Shown in pieces: positions 1-11,064 of a stretch of DNA of 11,064 nucleotides (its first letter is position 1; each line of letters opens with the position of its first letter). Origin of the DNA: a virus. Location: UHGV virus genome UHGV-1652352, one strand, 5' to 3'. Position numbers and translations under genes: made by a program. The notes under the pieces are model-generated. The model was not told the origin of the DNA, searched no databases, and worked only from the letters and a program-made list of their open reading frames with translations.

Positions 1-92
1 ATCCAGTGGTCATAGCAGTCGCTGATGTTCTCGGCTTCGATAACTCTGTTGAATGGTTCTCCATTCCATTCACCTGTAACTCGGAAGTGCAT
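1..92 (-). CDS. hypothetical protein, 5' part only (runs off the window start)
   Basis: Minus-strand ATG at 92..90 opens a frame (MHFRVTGEWNGEPFNRVIEAENISDCYDHW...) that continues to position 1. No clear SD. It overlaps plus-strand track ORF 25..360, which I judge spurious. Confidence 0.2.
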   Translation of the reverse strand, partial: MHFRVTGEWNGEPFNRVIEAENISDCYDHW

Positions 93-103
93 TTATCATC
101 GCC

Positions 104-130
104 ATAAAACAAAACTCGCCGTAGCGAGTT
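104..130 (-). terminator. candidate intrinsic terminator downstream of the ASCH-like gene
   Basis: On the minus strand: 7-bp stem AACTCGC / GCGAGTT with 4-nt loop (113..130), followed by a U-rich run TTTTGTTTTAT (RC of 104..114). Confidence 0.35.
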
Positions 131-164
131 CAGATAAAAGAAATCCCCGCGAGTGCGAGGATTG

Positions 165-449
165 TTATTCATTGCCGATATTCACTTTTATCGCGAACAC
201 CTTTACCGGTTTATCACCGAAGTGCGGATGTGTGATTGTCTTGATTTCATATCCGTCATACGGGACGTCAATTCTGCGGCTGGAATCGTCGCGCTTCGGA
301 TATCCCTTTGTGATAATCAGGCGGTCATATTCCCGGAACATAATTCGCTTATTCCAGTAGTCATTACACAGGCGATACTCTTCCGTTTTCTCTCCGCGAA
401 TCATGGCATCGAAGTATTCACCTTTGACAGCAAGTTGCAGGTTAGCCAC
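165..449 (-). CDS. ASCH-domain-like protein (94 aa)
   Basis: Track ORF 165..449. GTG start at 449..447 preceded by GGAGG with a 6-nt spacer. Contains a GxKxxExR motif (RGEKTEEYR) typical of ASCH domains. Its start overlaps the stop of the upstream Ea22-like gene. Confidence 0.55.
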   Translation of the reverse strand: MANLQLAVKGEYFDAMIRGEKTEEYRLCNDYWNKRIMFREYDRLIITKGYPKRDDSSRRIDVPYDGYEIKTITHPHFGDKPVKVFAIKVNIGNE

Positions 450-1239
450 GGTTAACCTCCAGTTGTGGTGCTGCTTCTATAGCAGCCCTGTAACCAGCAG
501 CATGACCGCGAAAGTTAGCAATCTCTGATAGCCACGCTTTAATCATGGCCTGAGTTGGCTCCTTCGGCACCATAACCCAACCATCCGGAGTTACCGGAGA
601 GTTGCCAGCCTGAACAGTAGGCATATCAGGACCTTTGCGAATCGCCCTGGCAAGATCGATTGGGTCGTCGTACAACCAGTCACCTGTTTGCGGATGATTG
701 GCTTCTGCCAATTGTGCAGCCCACTCCAGGCCGTCTTTGTGTCCTTGAAGATAGTCCAGCGGCAACTCATCATGTTCACTTACAGGTTCGGCCCCATGAA
801 GCATAGCGGCGCGGCATGCGTTCCAGCCTTGAGCCTTAGCTATTGCCACAACTGCATCGGTAAAGAACATTCTCGTGGTATCTGGCTCCGGCATTTCATC
901 CGGCACCGCTTGCTGCGTTAACCGTGGAGCCGTCAGCGACTCCAATTCAGCAATCCGCTTCTCTGCTGCTTCCAGTTCATCAAGTAGCGCCAGCACGGTA
1001 GCTGGACTGGCTGCGGCGATGAATTCAGCATTGGCCTGCTGTTCCATTTGGAAATCTTCATCGAAGCCGCTTTCTGGATGCGCTCCTTCAATTCTGCAAA
1101 TGGGAATATATCCAGCAATTTCACGATGAATTAGCGCATCATCACAATCAAATCGGCTCTCTCCATATTCGAGCGACCACACCCCACACGTTGCTTTTTC
1201 TGCCTTAGCACGCAGTGCCTGATAGTCAATTTCGCTCAC
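442..1239 (-). CDS. Ead/Ea22-like lambdoid early protein (265 aa from the GTG start)
   Basis: Track ORF 442..1260. I place the start at GTG 1239..1237 because AAGGAGG sits 6 nt upstream and the product then begins [16 protein letters not shown], as I recall for Ea22-like proteins. This start overlaps the stop of the upstream small ORF (GTGA). Confidence 0.7.
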
Positions 1240-1403
1240 TGTTTGCCTCCTTTGCGCCACATCGCATTCAGATATTTGTTTTGATTCACTGATGGAAAAG
1301 AATTTCTCTTAAGCAATTCCTCTCTCGATGGCATTGGCTTTACGCGTTGGCGAATAATCATTTCTGCCGGAAGAATGCCGGGATTGTATGCAAGTCCTCT
1401 CAT
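1236..1403 (-). CDS. small hypothetical protein (55 aa)
   Basis: Downstream part of track ORF 1236..1553. Internal ATG at 1403..1401 is preceded by GAGGA with a 7-nt spacer. Its stop overlaps the Ea22-like start. The longer 105-aa version would overlap the 97-aa gene in another frame. Confidence 0.35.
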
Positions 1404-1413
1404 GGTAAATTCC

Positions 1414-1707
1414 TCAGTCATTACTGATAGCGCCATAGCGTGATCGATAATTACGCAGGCGCGGGTCAATTTCAGGGAAGTGGGTATATGTGGCTTTGCG
1501 GAACGGTCGGATTGATGTCTGGTAAATTCGCTCGCGTTCTTCTTTCTCTGCAAGCCATATACAATGACGAAATTCCTTTTCCTCTTTCGTTTCCTGCGGT
1601 AGCGACATTATCAGGTCATAGTTTTTTCTGAATTTATCCAGCACCTCCGATACGGAATTGCCGGAACAGCGGCGCGGGTCATCCGCACCATACTGAGGCG
1701 CTGGCAT
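1414..1707 (-). CDS. hypothetical protein (97 aa)
   Basis: Track ORF 1414..1707. ATG at 1707 is preceded by AGGAG with a 6-nt spacer, immediately after the SSB stop. Confidence 0.55.
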
Positions 1708-1720
1708 GATTTTCTCCTGA

Positions 1721-2227
1721 TTAAATTGCGTGAATAGCGTGACGAGGGAAGGGGAGAGTTACTGGTGCAAAGGGTATATCGTCGTCAAAATCCATCGGAG
1801 GTTCGTTGTGTTGTGCTGGTGATGATTGCTGCTGTGGCTTCTGTGATTGCCTGCTGGCTGCTTGTTGTTTGCTGTCGCCAATGCCGCCAAGCATCTGCAT
1901 CACGCCATTAATTCCGACATGAACCTCGGTTGTGTAACGGTCTTGCCCTGACTGGTCTTTCCACTTTCTGGTTCTCAGCATTCCCTCGAAATAAATCTGA
2001 TCACCTTTTTTCACATACTGCCCCACGACCTCAGCCAGTTTCCCGGATACAGCAACACGATGCCATTCAGTCAATTCCTTTTGCTCGCCAGTATTTTTAT
2101 CTCGCCATTGTTCTGACGTGGCTATTGTCAGGTTAGCGAACGCTGTTCCTGATGGTGAGTATCGAACTTCCGGGTCTTGTCCTACCCGACCAAGGATAAT
2201 CACCTTATTTACGCCTCTGCTTGCCAT
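1721..2227 (-). CDS. ssb: single-stranded DNA-binding protein with a C-terminal extension past the DDDIPF tip
   Basis: Track ORF 1721..2227. N-terminus [23 protein letters not shown] and the ...TEWHRV..., ...[11 protein letters not shown]... blocks match the SSB OB-fold. The acidic tail [10 protein letters not shown] is present but followed by 15 more residues ([15 protein letters not shown]) before TAA. Confidence 0.9.
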
Positions 2228-2935
2228 TTATGCCGCCTGTTTTAGTTCGTTAACTCTGATGTTCATTATCTGAACGCATTTAGCCTGCGCCTCCTCGTTG
2301 CCAGCCATTAATTGCCAGTCACGCTGATAACGCTCGATGAGTTTTTTCTTGTCAGTTTCTGTTGACGCATAATCGCTGAAGTCTTTCAGGATTTGTTCGC
2401 AGTCAACCGATGGAGATTTCTGGTTGGTATTTTCTGGTGATGGTTTGTTATCTGATGCTGGGATTGCCCATCCCGGAAGCGATGGAGGGAGCCAGTAAAA
2501 TCCTGTTCCATCCTTCAGTTTTGCCCTGTGCCACCCCTGCTTTTTATCGAGAGATGTTTGTGCGAAACCTTCCTCAAGGTTATACAGATACCGACCGATT
2601 CCCCACTGAACGGCAGCGCGCTTCATTGCACCGGAACGACCACCTTTGACGGCTTCTACCTGCGTGTTTTCAGCAGCATCCCATTTGGTTACCCATTCGG
2701 AATCAATCTTTATTGATATGCCGCATTCAACGCCGCCGTTGTTGGGAATATCGCGGTATTCATTGCGCCATCCTGCTTTGCCGCAAACATCGTCCAGGCG
2801 TTTCATGATTGCCCGGTTCGTGACATAAGCCAGCACCATAGCCCACACCTTGCCATCGCGTGTTTTACCGCTTTGCTGTATTCGCCATTCGATATCTTCA
2901 GGGCTGAATGGCTCATCGAATTTGTTCAAATCCAT
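2228..2935 (-). CDS. single-strand annealing protein, Rad52/Sak- or Erf-like recombinase (235 aa)
   Basis: Track ORF 2228..2935. SD GAGGTG 5 nt before the ATG. Sits directly upstream of ssb (stop and start adjacent, TAAATG), the usual annealing-protein + SSB arrangement. Family assignment is from recollection, not a search. Confidence 0.7.
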   Translation of the reverse strand: MDLNKFDEPFSPEDIEWRIQQSGKTRDGKVWAMVLAYVTNRAIMKRLDDVCGKAGWRNEYRDIPNNGGVECGISIKIDSEWVTKWDAAENTQVEAVKGGRSGAMKRAAVQWGIGRYLYNLEEGFAQTSLDKKQGWHRAKLKDGTGFYWLPPSLPGWAIPASDNKPSPENTNQKSPSVDCEQILKDFSDYASTETDKKKLIERYQRDWQLMAGNEEAQAKCVQIMNIRVNELKQAA

Positions 2936-2943
2936 AATTCACC

Positions 2944-3114
2944 TCAGAATGGACAATGCCCAAGGAAATAACGCTGATTTAATACTTCGACTCGGGACAA
3001 ATTAAGGCATACCCGCATTCCTTCGCGGTCACCATTATGGCGATACCAGAGAGCTTTCTGCGTGTACATGCGTCTCTGTAACTTGCTCTCCTTCACTGTG
3101 GTTGCAAGTGACAT
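2944..3114 (-). CDS. small hypothetical ORF (56 aa), alternative to 3035..3193
   Basis: Not in the track (below its length cutoff). ATG 3114..3112 is preceded by AAGGAG with a 6-nt spacer; stop at 2946..2944. Overlaps 3035..3193 by about 80 nt in another frame, so probably only one of the two is real. Confidence 0.3.
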   Translation of the reverse strand: MSLATTVKESKLQRRMYTQKALWYRHNGDREGMRVCLNLSRVEVLNQRYFLGHCPF

Positions 3115-3193
3115 GAATATCTCCTTCGTTACCGATTAATTCTTTCATCTGACGAATGAATTCTTCGTCTGACCAGTTATCTGTAAAACTCAT
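3035..3193 (-). CDS. small hypothetical ORF (52 aa)
   Basis: ATG 3193..3191 overlaps the TGA of the upstream 50-aa ORF (ATGA). Product MSFTDNWSDEEFIRQMKELIGNEGDIHVTCNHSEGEQVTETHVHAESSLVSP. Weak SD (AGGAA immediately adjacent). Confidence 0.3.
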   Translation of the reverse strand: MSFTDNWSDEEFIRQMKELIGNEGDIHVTCNHSEGEQVTETHVHAESSLVSP

Positions 3194-3342
3194 TTCCTGC
3201 GATACCACGGAAGGTTGATAGCTGATTTCATCGCTTTATTTGCTTCAAGCCACATTTTTGAATCACCAATAAATCTGGCTATTACTGCTTTGTTTTGTGC
3301 CGCACGAAGCATCTGGTGATTGATGGCTATTTCATTGCGCAT
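3190..3342 (-). CDS. small hypothetical ORF (50 aa)
   Basis: ATG 3342..3340 is preceded by GGAGG with a 4-nt spacer and overlaps the end of the cIII-like gene. Product MRNEIAINHQMLRAAQNKAVIARFIGDSKMWLEANKAMKSAINLPWYRRK. Confidence 0.4.
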   Translation of the reverse strand: MRNEIAINHQMLRAAQNKAVIARFIGDSKMWLEANKAMKSAINLPWYRRK

Positions 3343-3461
3343 AACGCCTCCAGTTGTTTCTTTGCTGCTCTGATTAATTGTTTAACTCGGCGTGATAATT
3401 CAGATTCGTGCGGGTAGAAAGCGGACATGACGCCGCTACCCGCGAGCTGAAAGTGCATCAT
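3327..3461 (-). CDS. cIII: cIII-like small protein (44 aa), putative FtsH-inhibitor peptide
   Basis: Tandem ATG at 3461..3456 preceded by AAGGAG with a 6-nt spacer. Product MMHFQLAGSGVMSAFYPHESELSRRVKQLIRAAKKQLEALCAMK has the P-x-ES-x-L-x-R...L-R helix pattern I recall from lambda CIII (PSESLLERITRKLRDGW). The longer track ORF (start 3566) would run through a terminator hairpin. Confidence 0.5.
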   Translation of the reverse strand: MMHFQLAGSGVMSAFYPHESELSRRVKQLIRAAKKQLEALCAMK

Positions 3462-3523
3462 GGGTAACTCCTTATATTTGATTGCATAACGAAAACGCCT
3501 CGAGTGAAGCGTTATTGGTATGC

Positions 3524-3551
3524 ATATAAAAAAGCCCTCACACTGGAGGGC
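3524..3551 (-). terminator. candidate intrinsic terminator within the pL operon
   Basis: On the minus strand: GC-rich 6-bp stem GCCCTC / GAGGGC with 6-nt loop (3534..3551), followed directly by TTTTTTATAT (RC of 3524..3533). Confidence 0.5.
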
Positions 3552-3604
3552 AAAGAAGATTTCCAATAATCAGAACAAGTCGGCTCCTGTTTAGTTACGA
3601 GCGA

Positions 3605-3650
3605 CACTGCTCCGTGTATTCACTCGTTGGAATGAATACACAGTGCAGTG
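3605..3650. repeat. 18-bp imperfect inverted repeat with 10-bp spacer
   Basis: Left arm CACTGCTCCGTGTATTCA (3605..3622) versus the reverse complement of the right arm TGAATACACAGTGCAGTG (3633..3650): 16 of 18 positions match. Spacer CTCGTTGGAA. Intergenic, between the 80-aa gene and the cIII-like gene. Confidence 0.45.
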
Positions 3651-3679
3651 TTTATTCTGTTGCTTATTCCAAAGCAAAT

Positions 3680-3922
3680 TTAACCATCAACAAACTCTTC
3701 TGGTAATTTATCAACCAGTTGATGACTTATTATCAGCCATTTGCCATCCTTCGTTTCGTATGCATATTTCTGGTCTTTTATCATCATGTGTTCGGCTACT
3801 GCCCTAACTGCCTGATCGGTGACATCTTCTCTCTTTCCTACCCACATTCCTTTTTCAGTGTTTAATGTTCCTTGAAAAATACGACCGCTTAATGGGCTTG
3901 CGCCCATAGTTTTTACTCTCAT
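3680..3922 (-). CDS. hypothetical early protein (80 aa)
   Basis: Track ORF 3680..3922. Weak SD (GAGAG). Position corresponds to the N-to-cIII accessory slot of lambda (ral/sieB/ea10 region), but I see no sequence resemblance to those. Confidence 0.5.
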   Translation of the reverse strand: MRVKTMGASPLSGRIFQGTLNTEKGMWVGKREDVTDQAVRAVAEHMMIKDQKYAYETKDGKWLIISHQLVDKLPEEFVDG

Positions 3923-3986
3923 GTATCAGCTCTCAAATAAGTGGTTTGCTGCCAAAACAATGAACCATCCGGAAATTCCAGATAGT

Positions 3987-4211
3987 TCATAATTCACTCT
4001 TCAATACTTCCAACTTACTAATCGCCGATAGATATCCGCGCTGATAGGGCATCATCATTCCTTCGAGCTTGCCACTTCTTAACTCCTCCCTGAGCAATTG
4101 TATTGCTTGATCAATAACCTCTGACTTAGCGTCCTTTATGGCTTGCTTGCGGGGCTTTGCTTTCTGCTTTGGCAGATTTCTCAAGCATGATGGAATGTAT
4201 GTCTGATTCAT
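3987..4211 (-). CDS. hypothetical early protein (74 aa)
   Basis: Track ORF 3987..4214. The GTG at 4214 abuts the N stop; the ATG at 4211..4209 with GAGGT 5 nt upstream is the likely start. Confidence 0.5.
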   Translation of the reverse strand: MNQTYIPSCLRNLPKQKAKPRKQAIKDAKSEVIDQAIQLLREELRSGKLEGMMMPYQRGYLSAISKLEVLKSEL

Positions 4212-4214
4212 CAC

Positions 4215-4487
4215 TTACCTCGCTGTCAGTTGTTTTGATTTCCGGTATCCTGCCGCGTAAAGAGCTACGTTTGGCAGGCAAATACTTCCACTGCGTTCAT
4301 CTTCTTCCTTACAGCGAAGGCTTCCGAGTGATGCTGCTTTATCTGCTCTGACGCAACCAGAGAGCTTTAGCGCAATTTTTCGCGCCAGTGCTTCATTACT
4401 GCGTCGCTCGGCAATAAGTTCTGCTCTGCGAGCTTTGTAGCGGCTTTTTGCCGTACCTTTGGATTCTTTCCAGACAATGGTTACCAT
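4215..4487 (-). CDS. N: antitermination protein N-like (P22 gp24-like, 90 aa)
   Basis: Within track ORF 4215..4517; start ATG 4487..4485 with AAGGAG and 6-nt spacer. Arginine-rich N-terminal motif (GTAKSRYKARRAELIAERR) and a C-terminus LPNVALYAAGYRKSKQLTAR that matches my recollection of P22 gp24. Lies downstream of a nut site and candidate pL. Confidence 0.75.
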   Translation of the reverse strand: MVTIVWKESKGTAKSRYKARRAELIAERRSNEALARKIALKLSGCVRADKAASLGSLRCKEEDERSGSICLPNVALYAAGYRKSKQLTAR

Positions 4488-4597
4488 GATGGTCTCCTTT
4501 AAGTGGCTTTGGCGCATGACGCGTCGAGGTGCTTATCTTCTCGATCGCTGTCTTGCAGCTGCAATTCGCGCCATCCCCAAAACCACTCAAGTTCTGG

Positions 4598-4638
4598 TCT
4601 CAACGGTTAGGTTGAGAGTCCGTCGATGTTAAAGAGCC
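4598..4638 (-). promoter_or_regulatory. nutL: nutL-like site (boxA + boxB hairpin)
   Basis: Minus strand reads GGCTCTTTAACA (boxA-like, RC of 4627..4638), 9-nt spacer, then hairpin TCTCAAC-CTAACC-GTTGAGA (4598..4617). Same architecture and same CUAACC loop as the nutR candidate. Confidence 0.6.
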
Positions 4639-4685: not shown

Positions 4686-4747
4686 ATAGTCACATATTGT
4701 GATTTAATGGTCAATCACAAAATGTGTAAAATAAAGGTGTGACACGT
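4686..4747 (-). promoter_or_regulatory. candidate pL promoter(s) with oL operator palindromes
   Basis: Operator-like palindromes TCACA-TAT-TGTGA (4690..4702) and TCACA-AAA-TGTGT (4715..4727), plus a GTGTGACACG element (4737..4746). Two candidate leftward sigma-70 promoters overlap them: TTTACA (RC 4725..4730), 17 nt, TTAAAT (RC 4702..4707); or TTGACC (RC 4709..4714), 17 nt, GACTAT. Confidence 0.5.
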
Positions 4748-4963
4748 TATGTGTATGATTTTTTTGTGTAAATAGTTTTACCCGCGATGGTTTTGCTTAC
4801 TTAAGTCGGTGGCAACAGCAGGATGGGTGCTGAAAAGTTCGAAAAACGAGCGAAGGGGGGGTGGCGAGATGGCGGGATATGGGAGTTGTATTAAGAATTA
4901 TAGTAATTTAATCAATAGTTTGGACCGGCGGGCAGGTGCTGTCCTGATAGTGATCGGCGGGCA

Positions 4964-4990
4964 ATAAAAAACCCGGCTCGGTGGCCGGGT
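4964..4990 (-). terminator. intrinsic terminator ending the cI-side cassette
   Basis: Minus strand: stop of the 310-aa gene (4999..4997), then hairpin CCCGGC-CACCGA-GCCGGG (RC of 4972..4989), then TTTTTTATT. Textbook stem plus U-tract. Confidence 0.65.
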
Positions 4991-4996
4991 GAGATA

Positions 4997-5929
4997 TTAA
5001 AGAACCGATTTAACAAGATGGTTTTTACGGTACAGACCTATGCGATCATTGTGAATCTCAGTAGTCTCCACTAAAAGAGAAACAATCTGTCCGACCTTGT
5101 GTTTTTTTTGTATTAAATCTAGCATTTCAATCGGATAGGAAGCCTTTAAATGTTCACCACCAACATCAAGCTCCAGCTTCCCATATTTGGATAGAACGAC
5201 CAGTTCGCCTGTAACCGTTTCAGTAATGGGAGGGGATGAAATGGTTGATGTAAGTCTACTCACCAAGTACTTAATTTTATTGGAGTCAATAGTTGCCACC
5301 TTGGTGCCATTACTAAATGGACCGGTCCAACTTGCATCAAATGTTAAGTTGTGTTTATCGCATTCCTCTACGATTCTCTTAAGGCTTACAGTGGAATTGT
5401 ATCCAATTTCAGCGACGTGATTCATGAAGTTGTTGTCGTCATCGCTTAACAACAAATCGAATATGCCTTTTACAGCCTTGCTGGGTACTGTTTCTACTAA
5501 TTCTGCTATTCCTGTAGAGAAGGTGACGCCCAATTTTGTAGACCCAGGGGATAAATCAGCCAGCCTGAGGTTTAAGGAGCTTTTCACGTCGTAGGGAACT
5601 TTTTTTGAGTCCTTGCCTGAGGCAATTTTGTGTGTTGCTCTTTGTATTAGCGCTGCAAGATTTGTTGAAATAGCCCCAAGCAGCTCTAAAGGAATAGAGC
5701 CAAAGTCAACCTCAGAGCCTTTCAGCCGCAGCTCAAAAAAATCGATAAGTGGGTGCCGACTATCTTGCTTTAATTTTTCGGCCTTCAAATCGCTCAGATG
5801 AGAATCCATGGAGCGATAAAGAAGCATGTCAGCAAAGGACCTGGTTTTGTTTTGCTTCATTGCATCGACTTCTTTTTGAATGAAATCAATGCGTTTATCG
5901 CAATTTTTAAACATTGATTTATCATTCAT
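4997..5929 (-). CDS. hypothetical protein (310 aa), partner of the nucleotidyltransferase-like gene; candidate effector
   Basis: Track ORF 4997..5929. ATG 5929..5927 overlaps the TGA of the upstream gene (ATGA), with GAGGA 7 nt upstream. AT-rich by eye. No Walker motif, transmembrane segment or other motif I can recognise. Confidence 0.8.
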   Translation of the reverse strand: MNDKSMFKNCDKRIDFIQKEVDAMKQNKTRSFADMLLYRSMDSHLSDLKAEKLKQDSRHPLIDFFELRLKGSEVDFGSIPLELLGAISTNLAALIQRATHKIASGKDSKKVPYDVKSSLNLRLADLSPGSTKLGVTFSTGIAELVETVPSKAVKGIFDLLLSDDDNNFMNHVAEIGYNSTVSLKRIVEECDKHNLTFDASWTGPFSNGTKVATIDSNKIKYLVSRLTSTISSPPITETVTGELVVLSKYGKLELDVGGEHLKASYPIEMLDLIQKKHKVGQIVSLLVETTEIHNDRIGLYRKNHLVKSVL

Positions 5930-6405
5930 AAAAAAATCCTCACTAACCCTTTCGGGTTTTCACTGCGATCAAAACCAAACCAACCGCGCCAGTAGCTACG
6001 CCAGTACTCATAATCATAGTTAGGGTCATCTAAATTCTTCATGAGTAGTAGGACATCAATTTTGTAGTTTTGTTTGATGTAGTTTCGGTCAAGCAAATTA
6101 TCGACGCGGCCCCGAAGCATGACAGGTATTGAGTTTATATTGCTATAGTCACATACCAACAAAATATCAATATCATCAGGCTCTGGTTTAGACGTGGTGT
6201 ATGAACCATCAACCCATATTTCTGTAAAACAGCCATATTGAGCAGATAATTCTCGAATAGATTCGAGTAGCTGTATAAAATTACAGTATAGCATGCCTCG
6301 CCTGGATGATGAAGGAAAGCAATCGACACAATACGATTTTAATCCAGCTTCATCCATGTCATGGAACCCTGGCTCAAACAGGGGTGGGTAATTAATTTTA
6401 TCCAT
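5926..6405 (-). CDS. minimal nucleotidyltransferase (Pol-beta fold, MNT-like) domain protein (159 aa)
   Basis: Track ORF 5926..6405. AAGG about 6 nt upstream of ATG 6405. Carries the NTase signature h-G-S-x(9-13)-D-h-D-h: VDGSYTTSKPEPDDIDILLV, close to the GSxARG...SDxDLLV pattern of MNT-type enzymes. Confidence 0.8.
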   Translation of the reverse strand: MDKINYPPLFEPGFHDMDEAGLKSYCVDCFPSSSRRGMLYCNFIQLLESIRELSAQYGCFTEIWVDGSYTTSKPEPDDIDILLVCDYSNINSIPVMLRGRVDNLLDRNYIKQNYKIDVLLLMKNLDDPNYDYEYWRSYWRGWFGFDRSENPKGLVRIFL

Positions 6406-6440
6406 AAAAAACCTTGCTATACATTTGTTTTTTTATTAAA

Positions 6441-6468
6441 AATCTAACCACCGAAATGGTGACGGCAA
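6441..6468 (-). promoter_or_regulatory. candidate promoter for the two-gene cassette
   Basis: In the 148-bp AT-rich gap between cI and the NTase-like gene, minus strand reads TTGCCG (RC 6463..6468), 16 nt, TAGATT (RC 6441..6446), about 40 nt upstream of the ATG. A weak match, by eye only. Confidence 0.25.
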
Positions 6469-6553
6469 GATGTTACATGGGGTTACAATCAGCCAATACA
6501 CCGCATTAAATAATTTTTTCACCAGCTATGCGCCGACCAGAACACCTTGCCCA

Positions 6554-7201
6554 TCACCCAAACGTCTCTTCAGGCCACTGCGCCTTAACTACCTTGCCTA
6601 TGATGCGGCAGCTATGGTCGCAATCCAGGGTTCTATATGCCGGGTTTAAAGGTACCAGGTAACTAACCCCTGCATCCTTCTCATACTTCTTGAACGTTGC
6701 CTCTGAATCACCATTTGCAGAAGCCACGCAGAAATCCCCAGACTCTACCGGCTCAGCCGGATCAACGAGTATCAGCATGCCTTCCGGAAAACTTGGACGA
6801 ACCCCCTGAGGCGCCGTCATTGAATGCCCCTTCACCTCAAGCCAGAAAGCTTTTTCGCTGGCTTTTGTGGTCGTTGGGACCCATGCCTTTGCATCGCTGG
6901 CTGTGTAGCTTCCCACCTCCGAAAATGGCCCGGCCTGCACTGAAGAAAATAACGGGTATTCATATTGGCGAAATACGGCGTCTGAATCCTCGCCAAACAT
7001 TATTTTTGCCGGAGATACGCCGAGTGCCGCCCCAAGAACCAGCGCGTCATCCGCGCTAACCTTTCTTGTTCCTAACTCGTAGTTCCCCAGGCGTGAAGGC
7101 GCAGCCCAGCCGCAAAGCTTGGCCAATTGAGCCTGGCTAAGTCCTTTAGCTTCTCTAAGGGACTTGATCCTTTCCCCGATAATTTCATGCATCGTTTTCA
7201 T
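6554..7201 (-). CDS. cI: CI-type prophage repressor (HTH-XRE + S24 LexA-like peptidase domain)
   Basis: Track ORF 6554..7201. N-terminal HTH ([24 protein letters not shown]), Ala-Gly cleavage site (VQAGPF), Ser-Lys dyad (GHSM ... FKKYEKD). Divergent from cro across an operator region. The start could instead be the ATG at 7192. Confidence 0.9.
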
Positions 7202-7309
7202 CCCTTAAATGTAACACGCAACGTGATTGAACTCTGTACACGAATTGAGGTTGACTGTTAATCACAAATTGTGTGTAATGGGTGTGTGATTAATACTAGG
7301 GAGACCGCA
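7202..7309. promoter_or_regulatory. oR operator region with pR and probable pRM
   Basis: Candidate pR on plus strand: TTGACT (7251..7256), 17 nt, TGTAAT (7274..7279). Operator-like palindromes ACACG-CAA-CGTGA (7214..7226) and TCACA-AAT-TGTGT (7262..7274), plus a TGTGA half-site (7286..7290); same family as oL. pRM not pinned down. Confidence 0.6.
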
Positions 7310-7974: not shown

Positions 7975-8121
7975 ATGACAAAACAACTCAGTCCTTACCA
8001 GGACAAAATTCACAAACACATACTACGTGATCGCTTCCTGTCCAGCTTCAAGCAGCCTGGTCGATTCCGGTCTGAGTTGGAAAAAGTGAAGCTGATGCAG
8101 AAGGAGAAAGGTCATGAGTAA
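7975..8121 (+). CDS. small hypothetical ORF (48 aa) between cII and O
   Basis: ATG 7975 preceded by AGGAG with a 5-nt spacer. Stop TAA 8119..8121 overlaps the start of O by 8 nt. Product [48 protein letters not shown]. Confidence 0.4.
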
Positions 8122-8974
8122 TATTGCAACCGTAACACATTTAAGGCCTTCACAACGGCCTGTGGAGCGTCGTGTGGCAGAAGTTGAAGATGGTTATACC
8201 CGTCTTGCAAATGCCCTGTATGAAGAGCTTATCGGCGCAGATTTAACGAAAAATCAGAGCAAGGTTGCCCACGCCATATGCCGTAAAACATACGGCTACG
8301 GTAAAAAGATGGATCGCATCTCTGATAGTCAGTTAGCTCAAATTACCAGGCTGCCAAGACAGAAGGTAAACAAGGCCAAGAATGAGCTTATCGCGATGAA
8401 GGTTATCCTTCGCGAAGGCCAGCAAATCGGGCCTAACAAGAACATCGAGGAATGGCAAATCGAAGGGTGTCACTACTCTGGTGATAATGTCACTGCATTG
8501 GTGACAAAAAGTGTCACCAAAACGGTGACAGCGCTGTCACCAAAACAGGGACACACAAAAGAAACTATTACAAAAGAAAAAAGAAATAATAAAAACACTA
8601 TGTCCGAAAGTGTTCGGACGGAGTGTGAAAAATCACCTGACCGTCACGAAGAAACCGACAAGGCATTCGAGGAAATATTCTGGTGTGCAGGCATGCGGAA
8701 AGCCGGGAAGAAAAACGCAGCTTCGGCATTCAGAACACAGTTCAGGGAATGGCGTAAAACTACCAGGGGTACGGCAAGCGAGTTTGCCACGATGCTGGCA
8801 GAAGACATCGCATGCAGGAATGGTAAGCAGTTCGGATTCGACAGGTTGTTACCATCGAGCTACCTGAACGGTCAGCGCTGGAACGACGAGAAGCCAGAAA
8901 CCATTCAACCACAATCCAAACCATCATCCGCAATCACCGTATCGAAAACTGGCTACGTGTTTTTCGACAGGTGA
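8114..8974 (+). CDS. O: replication initiator O-like protein (lambda O N-terminal domain, divergent C-terminal domain)
   Basis: Track ORF 8114..8974, AAGGAG SD. N-terminal blocks [50 protein letters not shown] and PNKNIEEW match my recollection of lambda O. The C-terminal third does not resemble the lambda O P-binding domain. Confidence 0.85.
8467..8619. repeat. candidate origin inside O: iterons, AT-rich tract, palindrome
   Basis: Palindromic iterons GGTGACA-N-TGTCACC at 8500..8518 and 8524..8541, with degenerate copies at 8467..8494. Then an A-rich tract (8553..8600), then 7-bp-arm palindrome GTCCGAA-AGTG-TTCGGAC (8602..8619). Same layout as ori-lambda in the middle of O. Confidence 0.6.
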
Positions 8975-8977
8975 ACC

Positions 8978-9085
8978 ATGAAATCAAAAATCAAATCGCT
9001 ACTGGTCGCTGGTTATAACCACGGCTGGTTAAGTATTTCGTTTGTCGATTTCTGGTTTAAAAATCTCAATCTGAGGGAATCATGA
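8978..9085 (+). CDS. small hypothetical ORF (35 aa), translationally coupled to primase-helicase
   Basis: ATG 8978 with AGGTG 4 nt upstream; stop TGA 9083..9085 overlaps the primase-helicase ATG (ATGA). Product MKSKIKSLLVAGYNHGWLSISFVDFWFKNLNLRES. Confidence 0.3.
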   Translation: MKSKIKSLLVAGYNHGWLSISFVDFWFKNLNLRES

Positions 9086-10962
9086 CGCCAAGTGAACTCA
9101 GTGACCTGCTTTGGGCGCAGGTTGACAGGGTGGCTCCGCACCTGTTGCCAAACGGCAAGAAAGAGGGGCATGAGTGGGTTGCCGGTAACGTCAACGGTGA
9201 CAAGGGAAACAGCCTTAAGGTCAACCTTAGCGGCAAGAAAAAATGGGCTGATTTCGCTGAGGGAGACGGCGGTGACATGCTTGATTTGTGGATGGCATGT
9301 CGTGGAATTAACCTGCATCAGGCTATGCAGGAAGCGAAAGCCTTTCTCGGAATCAAGGATGACGATCACCATTTCGATGCCAAACGTGAGAAGAAATTCT
9401 CCAGACCTGACCGCAAGAAAATCGCCCGCTACGTTACCAGAACAGAATCCCATCTTGAGTACCTGCAATCGCGTGGCATATCGCCAGAAGTCGTAAAGCG
9501 CTACGAGGTTGTCAGCGGCAAGGTGTGGAATGGAGAACGGGAACTGGATGCTCTGGTGATTCCGTACAAACGCGATGGTGAGTTGTTGCAGGTCAAGCGA
9601 ATCAGCACTGAGCGCCCGGACGGGAAGAAAGTCATTATGGCAGAAGGTGATTGCGAACCTTGTCTGTTCGGATGGCAGGCTCTGGACGCTGGCGTGAGGG
9701 CGGTTGTACTTTGCGAAGGCGAAATTGATTGTATGAGCTATGCGCAATATGGCATCTCGGCGTTATCCGTGCCGTTTGGTGGCGGGAAAGGCGCTAAACA
9801 GCAGTGGATTGAGTTTGAGTATCACAACCTCGACAGGTTTGAGGAAATATTCATCTCGATGGACGTTGATGATGTTGGTCGTGAAGCCGCAAGGGAAATC
9901 GCAAGCCGACTCGGTGAACATCGTTGCCGTCTTGTTACTCTGCCGTACAAAGACATCAACGAATGCCTGATGAACGGTGTTACCGAGGATGAAATCTGGC
10001 AGTACATCGGCACGGCATCCTACTTCGATCCTGAAGAACTCTACAGTGCGCGAGAGTTTTACCAGGACACTATCAACGCTTTCTACGGCAAGCAGCAGTA
10101 TCTGTTTAATCCACTGTGGGAATCTCTGGCAGATAAATTCCAGTTCCGTGAGGCAGAGTTGACGCTGGTCAATGGTGTGAACGGTCACGGAAAAACGGAG
10201 GTTGTAGGGCATATGGCACTTGAGGCAATGCGTCAGGGTGTGAAGACGTGCATCGCGTCACTTGAGCTGAAGCCAGGCATTCTCCTTAAGCGACTTACCC
10301 GTCAGGCGACGTGCTGCAAGATGCCGCCAGTGCTGGAAATTGACTCTGCATTTAAATTTTATGACGAAAGACTTTGGGTGTTTGGCCTGACCGGAACGGC
10401 GAAAGCCGACAGGCTGATCGAAATATTCGACTACGCTCGCCGCCGATACGGCATCCAGTTATTCATCATCGACAGCCTGATGAAATGTGGCATAGGCGAC
10501 GATGACTATAACGGGCAGAAGGCGTTTGTTGACTCGATTTGCGATTTCAAAAACAAAACAAACTCCCACGTCATTCTCGTTACTCACTCGCGAAAAGGTG
10601 ACAGCGAAGAAAAACCAACCGGGAAAATGGACGTAAAAGGATCTGGAGCGATAACAGACCTGACAGACAACCTTTTCATCATCTGGCGTAACAAGGCTCG
10701 CGAGAGAGCGTTACAGAGAGTTCAGAGTGGTGAAAAGATGTCAGAGAAGGACGAACAGCTACTGGCATCTCCGGCATCTGTTTTGATGCTTGAAAAGCAA
10801 CGTAACGGCGAAGGTTGGGAAGGTGGTGTCCCGTTGTTCCTTGACGAGCAATCGCACCAGTTCCTGCAACTTGAATCAGGATCGCCTTATAGCTACATCG
10901 CCAATATGCCGAAATCGGAATATGACGAGGCGTGGCGACAGGAAAACGTGACGGAGTATTAA
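9082..10962 (+). CDS. bifunctional DNA primase / replicative helicase (toprim + DnaB/T7-gp4-like helicase, 626 aa)
   Basis: Track ORF 9082..10962. Toprim motifs (VVLCEGEIDCMSY ... ISMDVDDVGREAA). Walker A GVNGHGKT and Walker B LFIIDSLMK in the C-terminal half. Occupies the position of lambda P. Confidence 0.85.
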   Translation: MTPSELSDLLWAQVDRVAPHLLPNGKKEGHEWVAGNVNGDKGNSLKVNLSGKKKWADFAEGDGGDMLDLWMACRGINLHQAMQEAKAFLGIKDDDHHFDAKREKKFSRPDRKKIARYVTRTESHLEYLQSRGISPEVVKRYEVVSGKVWNGERELDALVIPYKRDGELLQVKRISTERPDGKKVIMAEGDCEPCLFGWQALDAGVRAVVLCEGEIDCMSYAQYGISALSVPFGGGKGAKQQWIEFEYHNLDRFEEIFISMDVDDVGREAAREIASRLGEHRCRLVTLPYKDINECLMNGVTEDEIWQYIGTASYFDPEELYSAREFYQDTINAFYGKQQYLFNPLWESLADKFQFREAELTLVNGVNGHGKTEVVGHMALEAMRQGVKTCIASLELKPGILLKRLTRQATCCKMPPVLEIDSAFKFYDERLWVFGLTGTAKADRLIEIFDYARRRYGIQLFIIDSLMKCGIGDDDYNGQKAFVDSICDFKNKTNSHVILVTHSRKGDSEEKPTGKMDVKGSGAITDLTDNLFIIWRNKARERALQRVQSGEKMSEKDEQLLASPASVLMLEKQRNGEGWEGGVPLFLDEQSHQFLQLESGSPYSYIANMPKSEYDEAWRQENVTEY

Positions 10963-10991
10963 ATGACCATCTACATCACTGAGCTTGTAAC

Positions 10992-11023
10992 AGGCCTGCT
11001 GGTAATCGCAGGCCTTTTTATTT
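10992..11023 (+). terminator. tR2-like intrinsic terminator
   Basis: 8-bp stem AGGCCTGC / GCAGGCCT with loop TGGTAATC (10992..11015), then TTTTTATTT (11016..11023). Sits between the replication gene and ninB, as tR2 does in lambda. Confidence 0.65.
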
Positions 11024-11039
11024 GGGGGAGAGGGAAGTC

Positions 11040-11064
11040 ATGAAAAAACTAACCTTTGAAATTC
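11040..11064 (+). CDS. ninB: NinB-like protein, first 8 codons only (runs off the window end)
   Basis: ATG 11040 preceded by GGGAAG; the product begins MKKLTFEI, matching the lambda NinB N-terminus as I recall it. Confidence 0.5.

Follow-up and report, generated by a model that had tools for sequence, protein, structure and literature searches.

A DUF6932 nucleotidyltransferase and its obligate partner in the rexAB slot of a lambdoid prophage: a plausible anti-phage module

The window analysed here is the whole of an 11,064-nucleotide (nt) stretch of viral DNA, UHGV virus genome UHGV-1652352, and two adjacent genes on its minus strand, called A and B, are the subject of this report. Gene A (5926-6405; ATG at 6405, stop codon at 5926-5928) encodes a 159-amino-acid (aa) minimal nucleotidyltransferase (NTase) of the Pol-beta fold, which matches Pfam DUF6932 and the PADLOC model PDC-M63A (E=1.8e-41). 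Gene B (4997-5929) encodes a 310-aa partner, which has no Pfam family and matches PDC-M63B (E=7.5e-45). The stop codon of A and the start codon of B share the four nucleotides ATGA (5926-5929), an overlap of the kind that couples translation. An original prediction, made from the sequence alone, had placed a 159-aa protein at 5926-6405 and had given it a 310-aa partner; the coordinates were correct, and both genes were found on the minus strand. It did not notice that the pair is a PDC-M63 candidate, or that it lies where rexA-rexB lie in phage lambda. A and B belong to the PADLOC candidate PDC-M63, and A to Pfam DUF6932, both of them catalogued without a function. Our results make it very likely that A is an NTase of DUF6932 with an intact active site, obligately paired with B as PDC-M63 in the rexAB slot.

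The stretch VDGSYTTSKPEPDDIDILLV corresponds to residues 65-84 of the A protein and contains G67-S68, nine further residues and D78-I-D80, followed by ILLV. By conservation and by the structure model, codons 67-80 (6166-6207, minus strand) hold the nucleotide- and metal-binding motif of the NTase fold. In the six-frame translation of the window, the strict pattern GS-x(9-13)-D-h-D-h-h occurred only once. It was also found in 0.07% of 20,000 composition-preserving shuffles of the A protein, and a looser version in 2.3%. Because shuffling alone yields it at these rates, the GS...DxD motif is only suggestive by itself and serves as a lead, so that the case for an NTase rests on Pfam, the structure model and conservation. 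Against Pfam DUF6932 (PF22014), the A protein scored 87.3 bits (threshold 27), with residues 8-157 aligned to positions 7-141 of the 142-position profile, and proteins identical to it are annotated as 'DUF6932 family protein' at NCBI. Furthermore, when 51 diverse DUF6932 members were scanned singly, 32-34 of them gave sub-threshold matches to NTP_transf_2, Polbeta and DNA_pol_B_palm, the best at E=9e-6. Sequence searches of the PDB with the single protein and with the family profile returned nothing significant for A; sub-threshold alignments to Pol-beta palm domains (E of about 0.2) paired the GS and the DxD. NCBIfam had no model for the A or the B protein, and in PHROGs the two matched only the unknown-function families 9194 and 6603. 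A metagenomic fragment of 132 aa (P0095) carries, besides DUF6932, a weak precomputed Pfam match to CYTH (PF01928; E=7e-4); to the extent that a fragment and a weak match allow, it may be a fusion of DUF6932 to a triphosphate-tunnel domain.

An AlphaFold2 model of the A protein, built on a 51-sequence family alignment, reached a predicted local distance difference test score (pLDDT) of 96.4 and a predicted template modelling score (pTM) of 0.89. It shows the alpha-beta-alpha-beta-alpha-beta core of solved Pol-beta members. The elements follow the canonical succession: helix 34-57, then strand 60-66 with GS at its end, strand 79-86 with DxD at its start, and strand 116-123, of which D117 is the first residue. 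All three signatures of the superfamily are found at the expected places: V65-D66-G67-S68 after strand 60-66 corresponds to hG[GS], D78-I-D80-I at the opening of strand 79-86, nine residues past S68, corresponds to [DE]h[DE]h, and I116-D117-V118 at the start of strand 116-123 corresponds, by its position in the model, to the h[DE]h of the third carboxylate. Codon D117 (6055-6057, minus strand) is therefore marked as the putative third catalytic carboxylate, from conservation and the model. The Pol-beta pattern named in the original prediction (G-S, then D-x-D and hydrophobic residues) is in this way borne out, with Pfam, model and conservation added to it. The model also retains the fold and a putative acidic triad, on which that prediction had staked itself, with GS and DxD on the canonical strands and D117 on the third. 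The prediction had been less exact about the ends of the protein. Its figure of about 55 extra N-terminal residues was an overcount, because helix 34-57 belongs in the model to the NTase fold itself, as its canonical first helix, and precedes the strand that ends in GS; the true extension is about 33 residues and consists of strand 13-16 and helix 19-28. Of the aromatic C-terminal region to which it had pointed, the motif from R136 onward is indeed family-wide, but the 'DDPNYDYEY' insertion is confined to the enterobacterial clade.

Structure prediction and a Foldseek comparison, which the original prediction had proposed as a check, gave an NTase fold with minimal nucleotidyltransferase (MNT) antitoxins and cGAS/DncV-like nucleotidyltransferases (CD-NTases) among the matches. 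When all PDB chains were searched, the matches included 2rff, the MNT antitoxins 7ae2, 7ae9 and 8xeo, CdnC, 1ylq and HI0073. The closest solved structures included MNT antitoxins of MntA-HepT (7ae2, 7ae9, 8xeh, 5yep) as well as stand-alone minimal NTases (2rff, 1ylq, HI0073, 1wot), while the CD-NTases CdnC, CdnD, CdnB and CdnE were weaker matches. Set beside the MNT type (GSx10DxD, about 100-140 aa), A has the motif with nine intervening residues, has extra N- and C-terminal elements and matches MNT structures weakly. In the aminoglycoside and lincosamide NTases (ANT, KNTase, LinB) only the N-terminal NTase core aligns to A (85-101 of 250-265 residues), and A does not have their C-terminal helical substrate-binding domain.

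Conservation reaches well beyond the metal-binding motif. Residues R36, W64, G67, S68, T71, P76, D78 and D80 were invariant in a set of 108 distinct homologues drawn from many phyla. At the position of D117, 95 of these have Asp and 3 have Glu (98 of 108 with either acid). About 20 positions of A besides GS and DxD were invariant or almost so. The motif RSYWRGWFGFxRxExxKG (codons 136-153; 5947-6000, minus strand), which covers part of helix 132-143 and the loop after it, was invariant in the 51-sequence alignment and largely retained among the 108 homologues, in which Y138, W139, F143, G144, R147, K152 and G153 were each at least 83% conserved. To our knowledge, this motif is absent from MNT-type NTases, and from its conservation it may contribute to substrate binding. 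For a protein this short (about 150 residues), the number of fixed positions suggests that the enzyme works and that its substrate site is elaborate.

The two genes were found together wherever this could be assessed. In a set seeded with A (80 loci from species-representative genomes, of which 75 had room downstream), a B-like open reading frame (ORF) stood immediately 3' of A on the same strand in 75 of 75 loci from many phyla. In a set seeded with B (60 viral or prophage contigs with enterobacterial-type partners only, one of them cut by the contig end), an intact A gene preceded B in all 59 assessable loci. The A-B junction in distant homologues was an overlap or a gap of at most 14 nt, and B partners at 24-27% identity were colinear over their full length. 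A and B are one obligate two-gene module. Members occur in Proteobacteria, Bacteroidota, Firmicutes, Acidobacteriota, Nitrospirota, Verrucomicrobiota and further groups, yet the family is rare: 131 matches were obtained in about 185,000 species representatives, and 18 of 5,426 complete E. coli genomes carried it.

Gene B encodes a three-part protein according to its AlphaFold2 model (pLDDT 93). Residues 1-58 (5756-5929, minus strand) form an antiparallel helical hairpin at 2-57, with helices 2-25 and 32-57; residues 62-231 (5237-5746, minus strand) form an orphan alpha/beta middle domain, which holds S130 (G129-S130); and residues 235-309 (5003-5227, minus strand) form an OB fold, whose barrel has five strands and a single helix placed after strand 3 and before strand 4, and which matches SSB, PriB and RuvA-type domains. 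No sequence relative was found for the B protein in Pfam, NCBIfam or the PDB (the last searched with the single protein and with family profiles), and a Pfam scan of 123 B relatives gave no consistent family. An exhaustive profile search with B returned 269 cluster representatives only, nearly all of 300-325 residues. The sole invariant residue of this family was S130, in a G-S turn. Conserved G-S turns lie at a helix N-terminus and in a hairpin, and a Ser/His pair was conserved in the N-terminal helical hairpin. Residues 62-146 (window 5491-5746) weakly matched the N-terminus of another PADLOC candidate, PDC-M32A (E=3e-5). The same match was obtained in 34 of the 123 relatives (best E=7e-8), a few of which also matched PDC-M02B, and this part of B may be a module common to unverified candidate systems. 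Neither protein has a transmembrane (TM)-like segment (maximum 19-residue hydropathy of B, 1.38). The A protein is acidic, with an isoelectric point of 4.7, and B is basic, with one of 8.3.

Partners that depart from this architecture were found at seven to eight loci, where only positions 1-58 of the B profile, the hairpin, were matched. For example, three variants (L028, L068 and L082) have TPR repeats after the hairpin (TPR_2 E=3e-15), two (L065 and L071) have a short strand-rich tail of about 70 residues resembling the OB region, and one (L055) has an unrelated stretch of about 110 residues. The helix-2 motif FAxxLxxxSLxSHxxDL was kept in the hairpins of the variants; S130 was missing in some, and the OB fold in some. 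Across these sequences the hairpin is the constant element of B, and the rest is predicted to be exchangeable. Since it is the part that variant partners have in common, we infer that the hairpin is the docking site for the NTase. With such variants, a single site of modification conserved in B beyond the N-terminal hairpin also becomes less likely. Nucleotidylation of B by A at S130 was considered as a universal mechanism and was downgraded, some variants having no such domain. At one further locus (L091:4456-7023), a DUF6932 gene is followed by an overlapping gene for an 856-aa HsdR-like protein (ResIII, Helicase_C, EcoEI_R_C). Its first 59 or so residues matched the B hairpin weakly (E=9e-4) and without the helix-2 motif, and its standing as a true variant partner was downgraded to uncertain. 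At five other loci (L026, L035, L057, L086 and L151) B was split into two ORFs that jointly cover the whole profile, next to an intact A. A disrupted A beside an intact B was never found. The split ORFs could be pseudogenes or sequencing errors.

The window is a segment of a lambdoid prophage or phage, and the pair is embedded in its immunity region. Window positions 4900-6560 are 99.6% identical to coliphage mEpX1, in which A and B carry the annotation 'hypothetical'. Along the minus strand follow, one after another, a cI-type repressor, A, B, a strong terminator-like hairpin, about 480 nt with operator-like palindromes, and the N antiterminator; on the other side of cI follow cro, cII, O and a Toprim/DnaB-type primase-helicase. 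The repressor gene (6554-7201, minus strand), directly upstream of A, encodes a helix-turn-helix domain (HTH_31/HTH_3) and an S24 peptidase (Peptidase_S24, 3e-26) and is annotated cI in mEpX1. The hairpin (4971-4990, minus strand) has seven pairs, six of them G-C, with a T run, resembles an intrinsic terminator and lies 7 nt past the B stop codon. Operator-like palindromes mark the left edge of the region (4691-4742), and a matching sequence lies between cI and cro (7257-7289). The two share a 33-nt repeat (4710-4742 and 7257-7289) of 76% identity, with inverted arms at 4691-4704, 4713-4726 and 7260-7273. Of palindromes of the type AATCACAA(A/T)(A/T)TGTG, two lie on the left side of the cassette and one in the cI-cro spacer. 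Together, 4691-4742 and 7257-7289 look like the left and right operators (OL and OR) of this immunity type.

The A-B pair, between cI and OL and the left promoter (PL), is in the rexA-rexB slot of lambda. The likeness to RexA-RexB extends to the cI strand, the terminator after the genes, the two-gene organisation and, presumably, expression in the lysogen; lambda itself was among the matches of a sequence search. However, the Rex proteins have no detectable homology to A or B, and RexB is a multi-pass membrane protein, unlike either of them. The cassette has a G+C content of 39-43%, compared with 52% in cI. Its placement downstream of an S24 repressor recurred in a Rac-like prophage with an A protein 61% identical and in a distant metagenomic prophage with one 40% identical, and the pair stood beside a repressor, of several types, in at least 41 of the 59 viral loci. 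In viral contigs (L093-L108) B was 100% identical to that of the window, while similarity of the repressor to the window cI ranged from E=1e-146 to E=1e-7 or was undetectable. Cassette and repressor allele are therefore seen to reassort. A further copy is flanked by YoeB/YefM on one side and by a type I restriction-modification (R-M) system on the other. A and B are probably transcribed with cI in lysogens, judging from the gene arrangement, and no strong promoter match was found between cI and A. Read-through from cI could be attenuated by a weak terminator-like hairpin (6447-6466, minus strand; six pairs, three of them G-C, with an interrupted T run) that separates the cI stop from the A start. 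An Rfam scan of the window gave no structured RNA and hence no ToxI-like RNA antitoxin.

Little has been written on this pair. PDC-M63 was described as 'never previously verified experimentally' (PMC12409345). Our literature search found no paper on DUF6932, PF22014, the RefSeq accessions or the PHROG ids, the mEpX1 papers contain nothing on the A or B genes, and DUF6932 is not among the newly validated DUFs of DefensePredictor. Small NTases have lately been shown to be central to the regulation of bacterial immunity, as in MntA, HalB, CloB and the CD-NTases. DUF6932 and its partner add to these a widespread yet rare pair, present in many phyla, with an intact active site and a partner of no known catalytic domain. 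The architecture of A-B differs from that of every characterised NTase-based system.

From the directly supported fold, intact active site, obligate pairing, genomic position and partner modularity, we build a proposal for the enzyme activity, its substrate, the direction of regulation and a role in defence. A-B would be a low-GC accessory cassette of a lambdoid prophage, co-transcribed with cI in lysogens, and would most likely act in the exclusion of, or in abortive defence against, other phages. B would be a sensor or scaffold. Its N-terminal hairpin would dock the NTase, and its exchangeable C-terminal part would recognise an infection cue, through the orphan domain and OB fold here and, in the variants, through either TPR repeats or a short tail that is OB-like. 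A would provide the catalytic output, being the only enzyme of the pair. On triggering, it might attach a nucleotide to a protein or to the 3' end of a nucleic acid, after the fashion of MenT and AbiEii, and the Arg/Lys and aromatic residues that are invariant in the RSYWRGWFGF motif would form the acceptor site. In AbiEii and MenT, a Pol-beta-fold NTase is itself the growth-arresting output and adds nucleotides to tRNA 3' ends.

Several observations favour this proposal. A sensor role of B is suggested because B has no catalytic or membrane domain, and because the variants keep the hairpin and exchange the rest for TPR repeats or an OB-like tail; recognition is a typical task of both TPR and OB folds. 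The loci with a split B beside an intact A would be awkward for a B that served as the essential antidote to a constitutively toxic A. A defence context is suggested by the PDC-M63 match, the rexAB slot, the recurrent placement at repressors and the copy between YoeB/YefM and the R-M system, and we consider it plausible that the pair is an anti-phage module.

Other points weigh against the proposal. Deletion of PDC-M63AB from a prophage of its native host, E. coli NILS69, caused no change for ten virulent phages (PMC12409345), and no activity of any kind has been reported for the DUF6932 family. The known NTase toxins MenT and AbiEii are about twice the size of A and were not detected as its relatives. 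In MntA-HepT, HalB-HalA and CloB-CloA the NTase is a negative regulator and not the output (for HalB and CloB, PMC13434031), and the NTase-first gene order of A-B is that of MNT-HEPN. The docking of A on the B hairpin is suggested by conservation alone. The HsdR-like helicase at L091, if a variant partner, would be effector-like and not sensor-like, although it may just be a neighbouring R-M gene. The excess of disrupted B over disrupted A is not significant (p of about 0.13), B being twice as long. On balance, the statement as a whole, which joins the intact DUF6932 NTase module to prophage exclusion and to a sensor-plus-effector mechanism, is the reading that we favour, though at slightly less than even odds. 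It is also possible, though more doubtful, that PDC-M63 is a new prophage-borne immunity class, in which a constant minimal NTase output is mounted on a hairpin adaptor with interchangeable recognition modules. If so, different partners would couple different infection cues to the same nucleotidylation, a logic unlike that of MNT-HEPN, Hailong, Clover or CBASS, the anti-phage signalling system that is based on cyclic oligonucleotides.

The main rival, which we consider unlikely, reverses the roles. B would be a latent toxic effector held off by the NTase, according to the logic of a guard or of a type VII toxin-antitoxin (TA) system, until phage infection removes the mark or ligand and B is released. 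By one route the NTase would covalently nucleotidylate B, as MntA does HepT; the closest solved structures of A include the MNT antitoxins, the NTase-first order and tight coupling are as in MNT-HEPN, and S130 in its G-S turn and the Ser/His pair of the hairpin could be acceptor sites. By another route the NTase would constitutively make an inhibitory nucleotide or oligonucleotide for B, perhaps bound through the OB fold, in the way of HalB poly-dA for HalA and CloB p3diT for CloA. Hailong (HalB NTase with the HalA ion channel) and Clover (CloB NTase with the CloA deoxynucleoside triphosphatase, dNTPase) are likewise two-gene anti-phage operons of a small NTase and a non-NTase partner, and in both the NTase is a constitutive negative regulator (PMC13434031). 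They are possible precedents for an NTase product held by the partner, and the OB fold of B could bind an oligonucleotide product. Furthermore, a B split beside an intact A in five loci, with the reverse never seen, is the decay pattern expected of a toxin.

However, B contains no recognisable toxic domain, HEPN, TM segment or HD domain, and partners with TPR repeats or an OB-like tail of about 70 residues would be unlikely toxins. HEPN in particular was not found consistently among the 123 B relatives (two HEPN families each gave a single sub-threshold match, in 1 of the 123), there is no conserved R/H pair in B that could form Rx4-6H, and its fold of hairpin, alpha/beta domain and OB is not that of HEPN, which places A-B outside the HEPN-MNT type VII TA systems. 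The original prediction had offered three possible functions, namely signal synthase, nucleotidylating antitoxin and modifier of its partner. Its MntA-like option accordingly lacks the defining feature, a HEPN partner. HalA is a transmembrane channel, whereas B is soluble; CloA is an HD-domain dNTPase, whereas neither B nor its 123 relatives have an HD or dNTPase Pfam domain; and HalB and CloB were not returned among the sequence or structure matches of A. Some variants lack S130 and some lack the OB fold, and neither can therefore be a universal control point. The asymmetry of decay, as said, is not significant, and we gave it no weight.

Less probable than a held-off toxin is a function outside defence, in the phage life cycle or as a host accessory, for example a nucleic-acid end-modifier with an OB cofactor acting in lysogeny, induction, or DNA repair and recombination. 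The sole functional test found no anti-phage phenotype (PMC12409345), and the OB fold of B resembles SSB, PriB and RuvA-type domains. One chromosomal copy of the pair (L154:2894-9372) directly follows, on the same strand, imuB-like (IMS) and dnaE2-like error-prone polymerase genes, adjoining in this way an imuB-dnaE2 mutagenesis cassette. On the other hand, the cassette is rare and patchy (the 18 E. coli genomes and the 131 matches among species representatives given above), mobile between repressor types, lower in GC than its neighbours and placed in a known exclusion-gene slot, a pattern typical of defence cargo and not of a core phage function. Other copies adjoin TA and R-M genes. Should the pair prove to have no part in defence, that would be useful as well, since its label as a PADLOC candidate could then be dropped.

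Slightly more improbable again is a CBASS-like signal synthase and receptor, in which an infection-activated NTase would make a messenger that B binds and executes. The intact active site and the weaker structural matches to CdnC, CdnD, CdnB and CdnE are in keeping with it, and the conserved G-S turns of B, at a helix N-terminus and in a hairpin, could bind phosphate. CD-NTases hold the acceptor nucleotide with a second lobe, however, and A with its 159 residues has none; it is thus not a CBASS CD-NTase, which is bilobed, of about 300-400 aa and adjacent to a Cap effector. No CBASS, Pycsar or other signalling model of PADLOC was matched, B contains neither a known effector domain nor a receptor domain of the SAVED/STING type, and the TPR variants argue against a conserved ligand pocket. 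A chance motif, or an inactive pseudo-enzyme whose fold is kept as a scaffold, is very improbable in view of G67, S68, D78 and D80 being invariant across phyla together with some 20 near-invariant positions, of the two thirds of members that cross-match NTase Pfam models, and of the motifs sitting on the canonical strands of the model.

For the proposed sensor B with its NTase output A, AbiEii and MenT are the functional analogy. AbiEii and MenT (DUF1814; type IV and VII TA systems and abortive infection) are proteins of about 280-300 aa with four motifs, whose AbiEi- or MenA-type antitoxin is encoded upstream. A is only 159 aa long and had no Pfam or PADLOC match to them, and it is not a member of that group. 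Learning what the pair does could bring to light either a new output chemistry or another kind of NTase-controlled guard. The location in the rexAB slot makes the pair directly studiable in lambda-type lysogens, with the sequenced phage mEpX1 at hand, and a partner made of a hairpin and swappable modules offers a handle on how such systems change their sensing.

Beyond the immunity region the window and mEpX1 (L001) part. Positions 1-4600 and 8000-11064 differ from mEpX1, and the two match only at the immunity region. The window has a Rad52-type annealing protein and SSB where mEpX1 has Bet, and O with a 626-aa Toprim/DnaB-type primase-helicase where mEpX1 has O with a DnaC-type loader. Such differences between modules are typical of lambdoid mosaicism. 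The early-left region of the window carries, on the minus strand, genes for a DUF7446 protein (80 aa; 3680-3922) and an Ead/Ea22-like protein (272 aa; 442-1260), which are uncharacterised lambdoid accessory genes.

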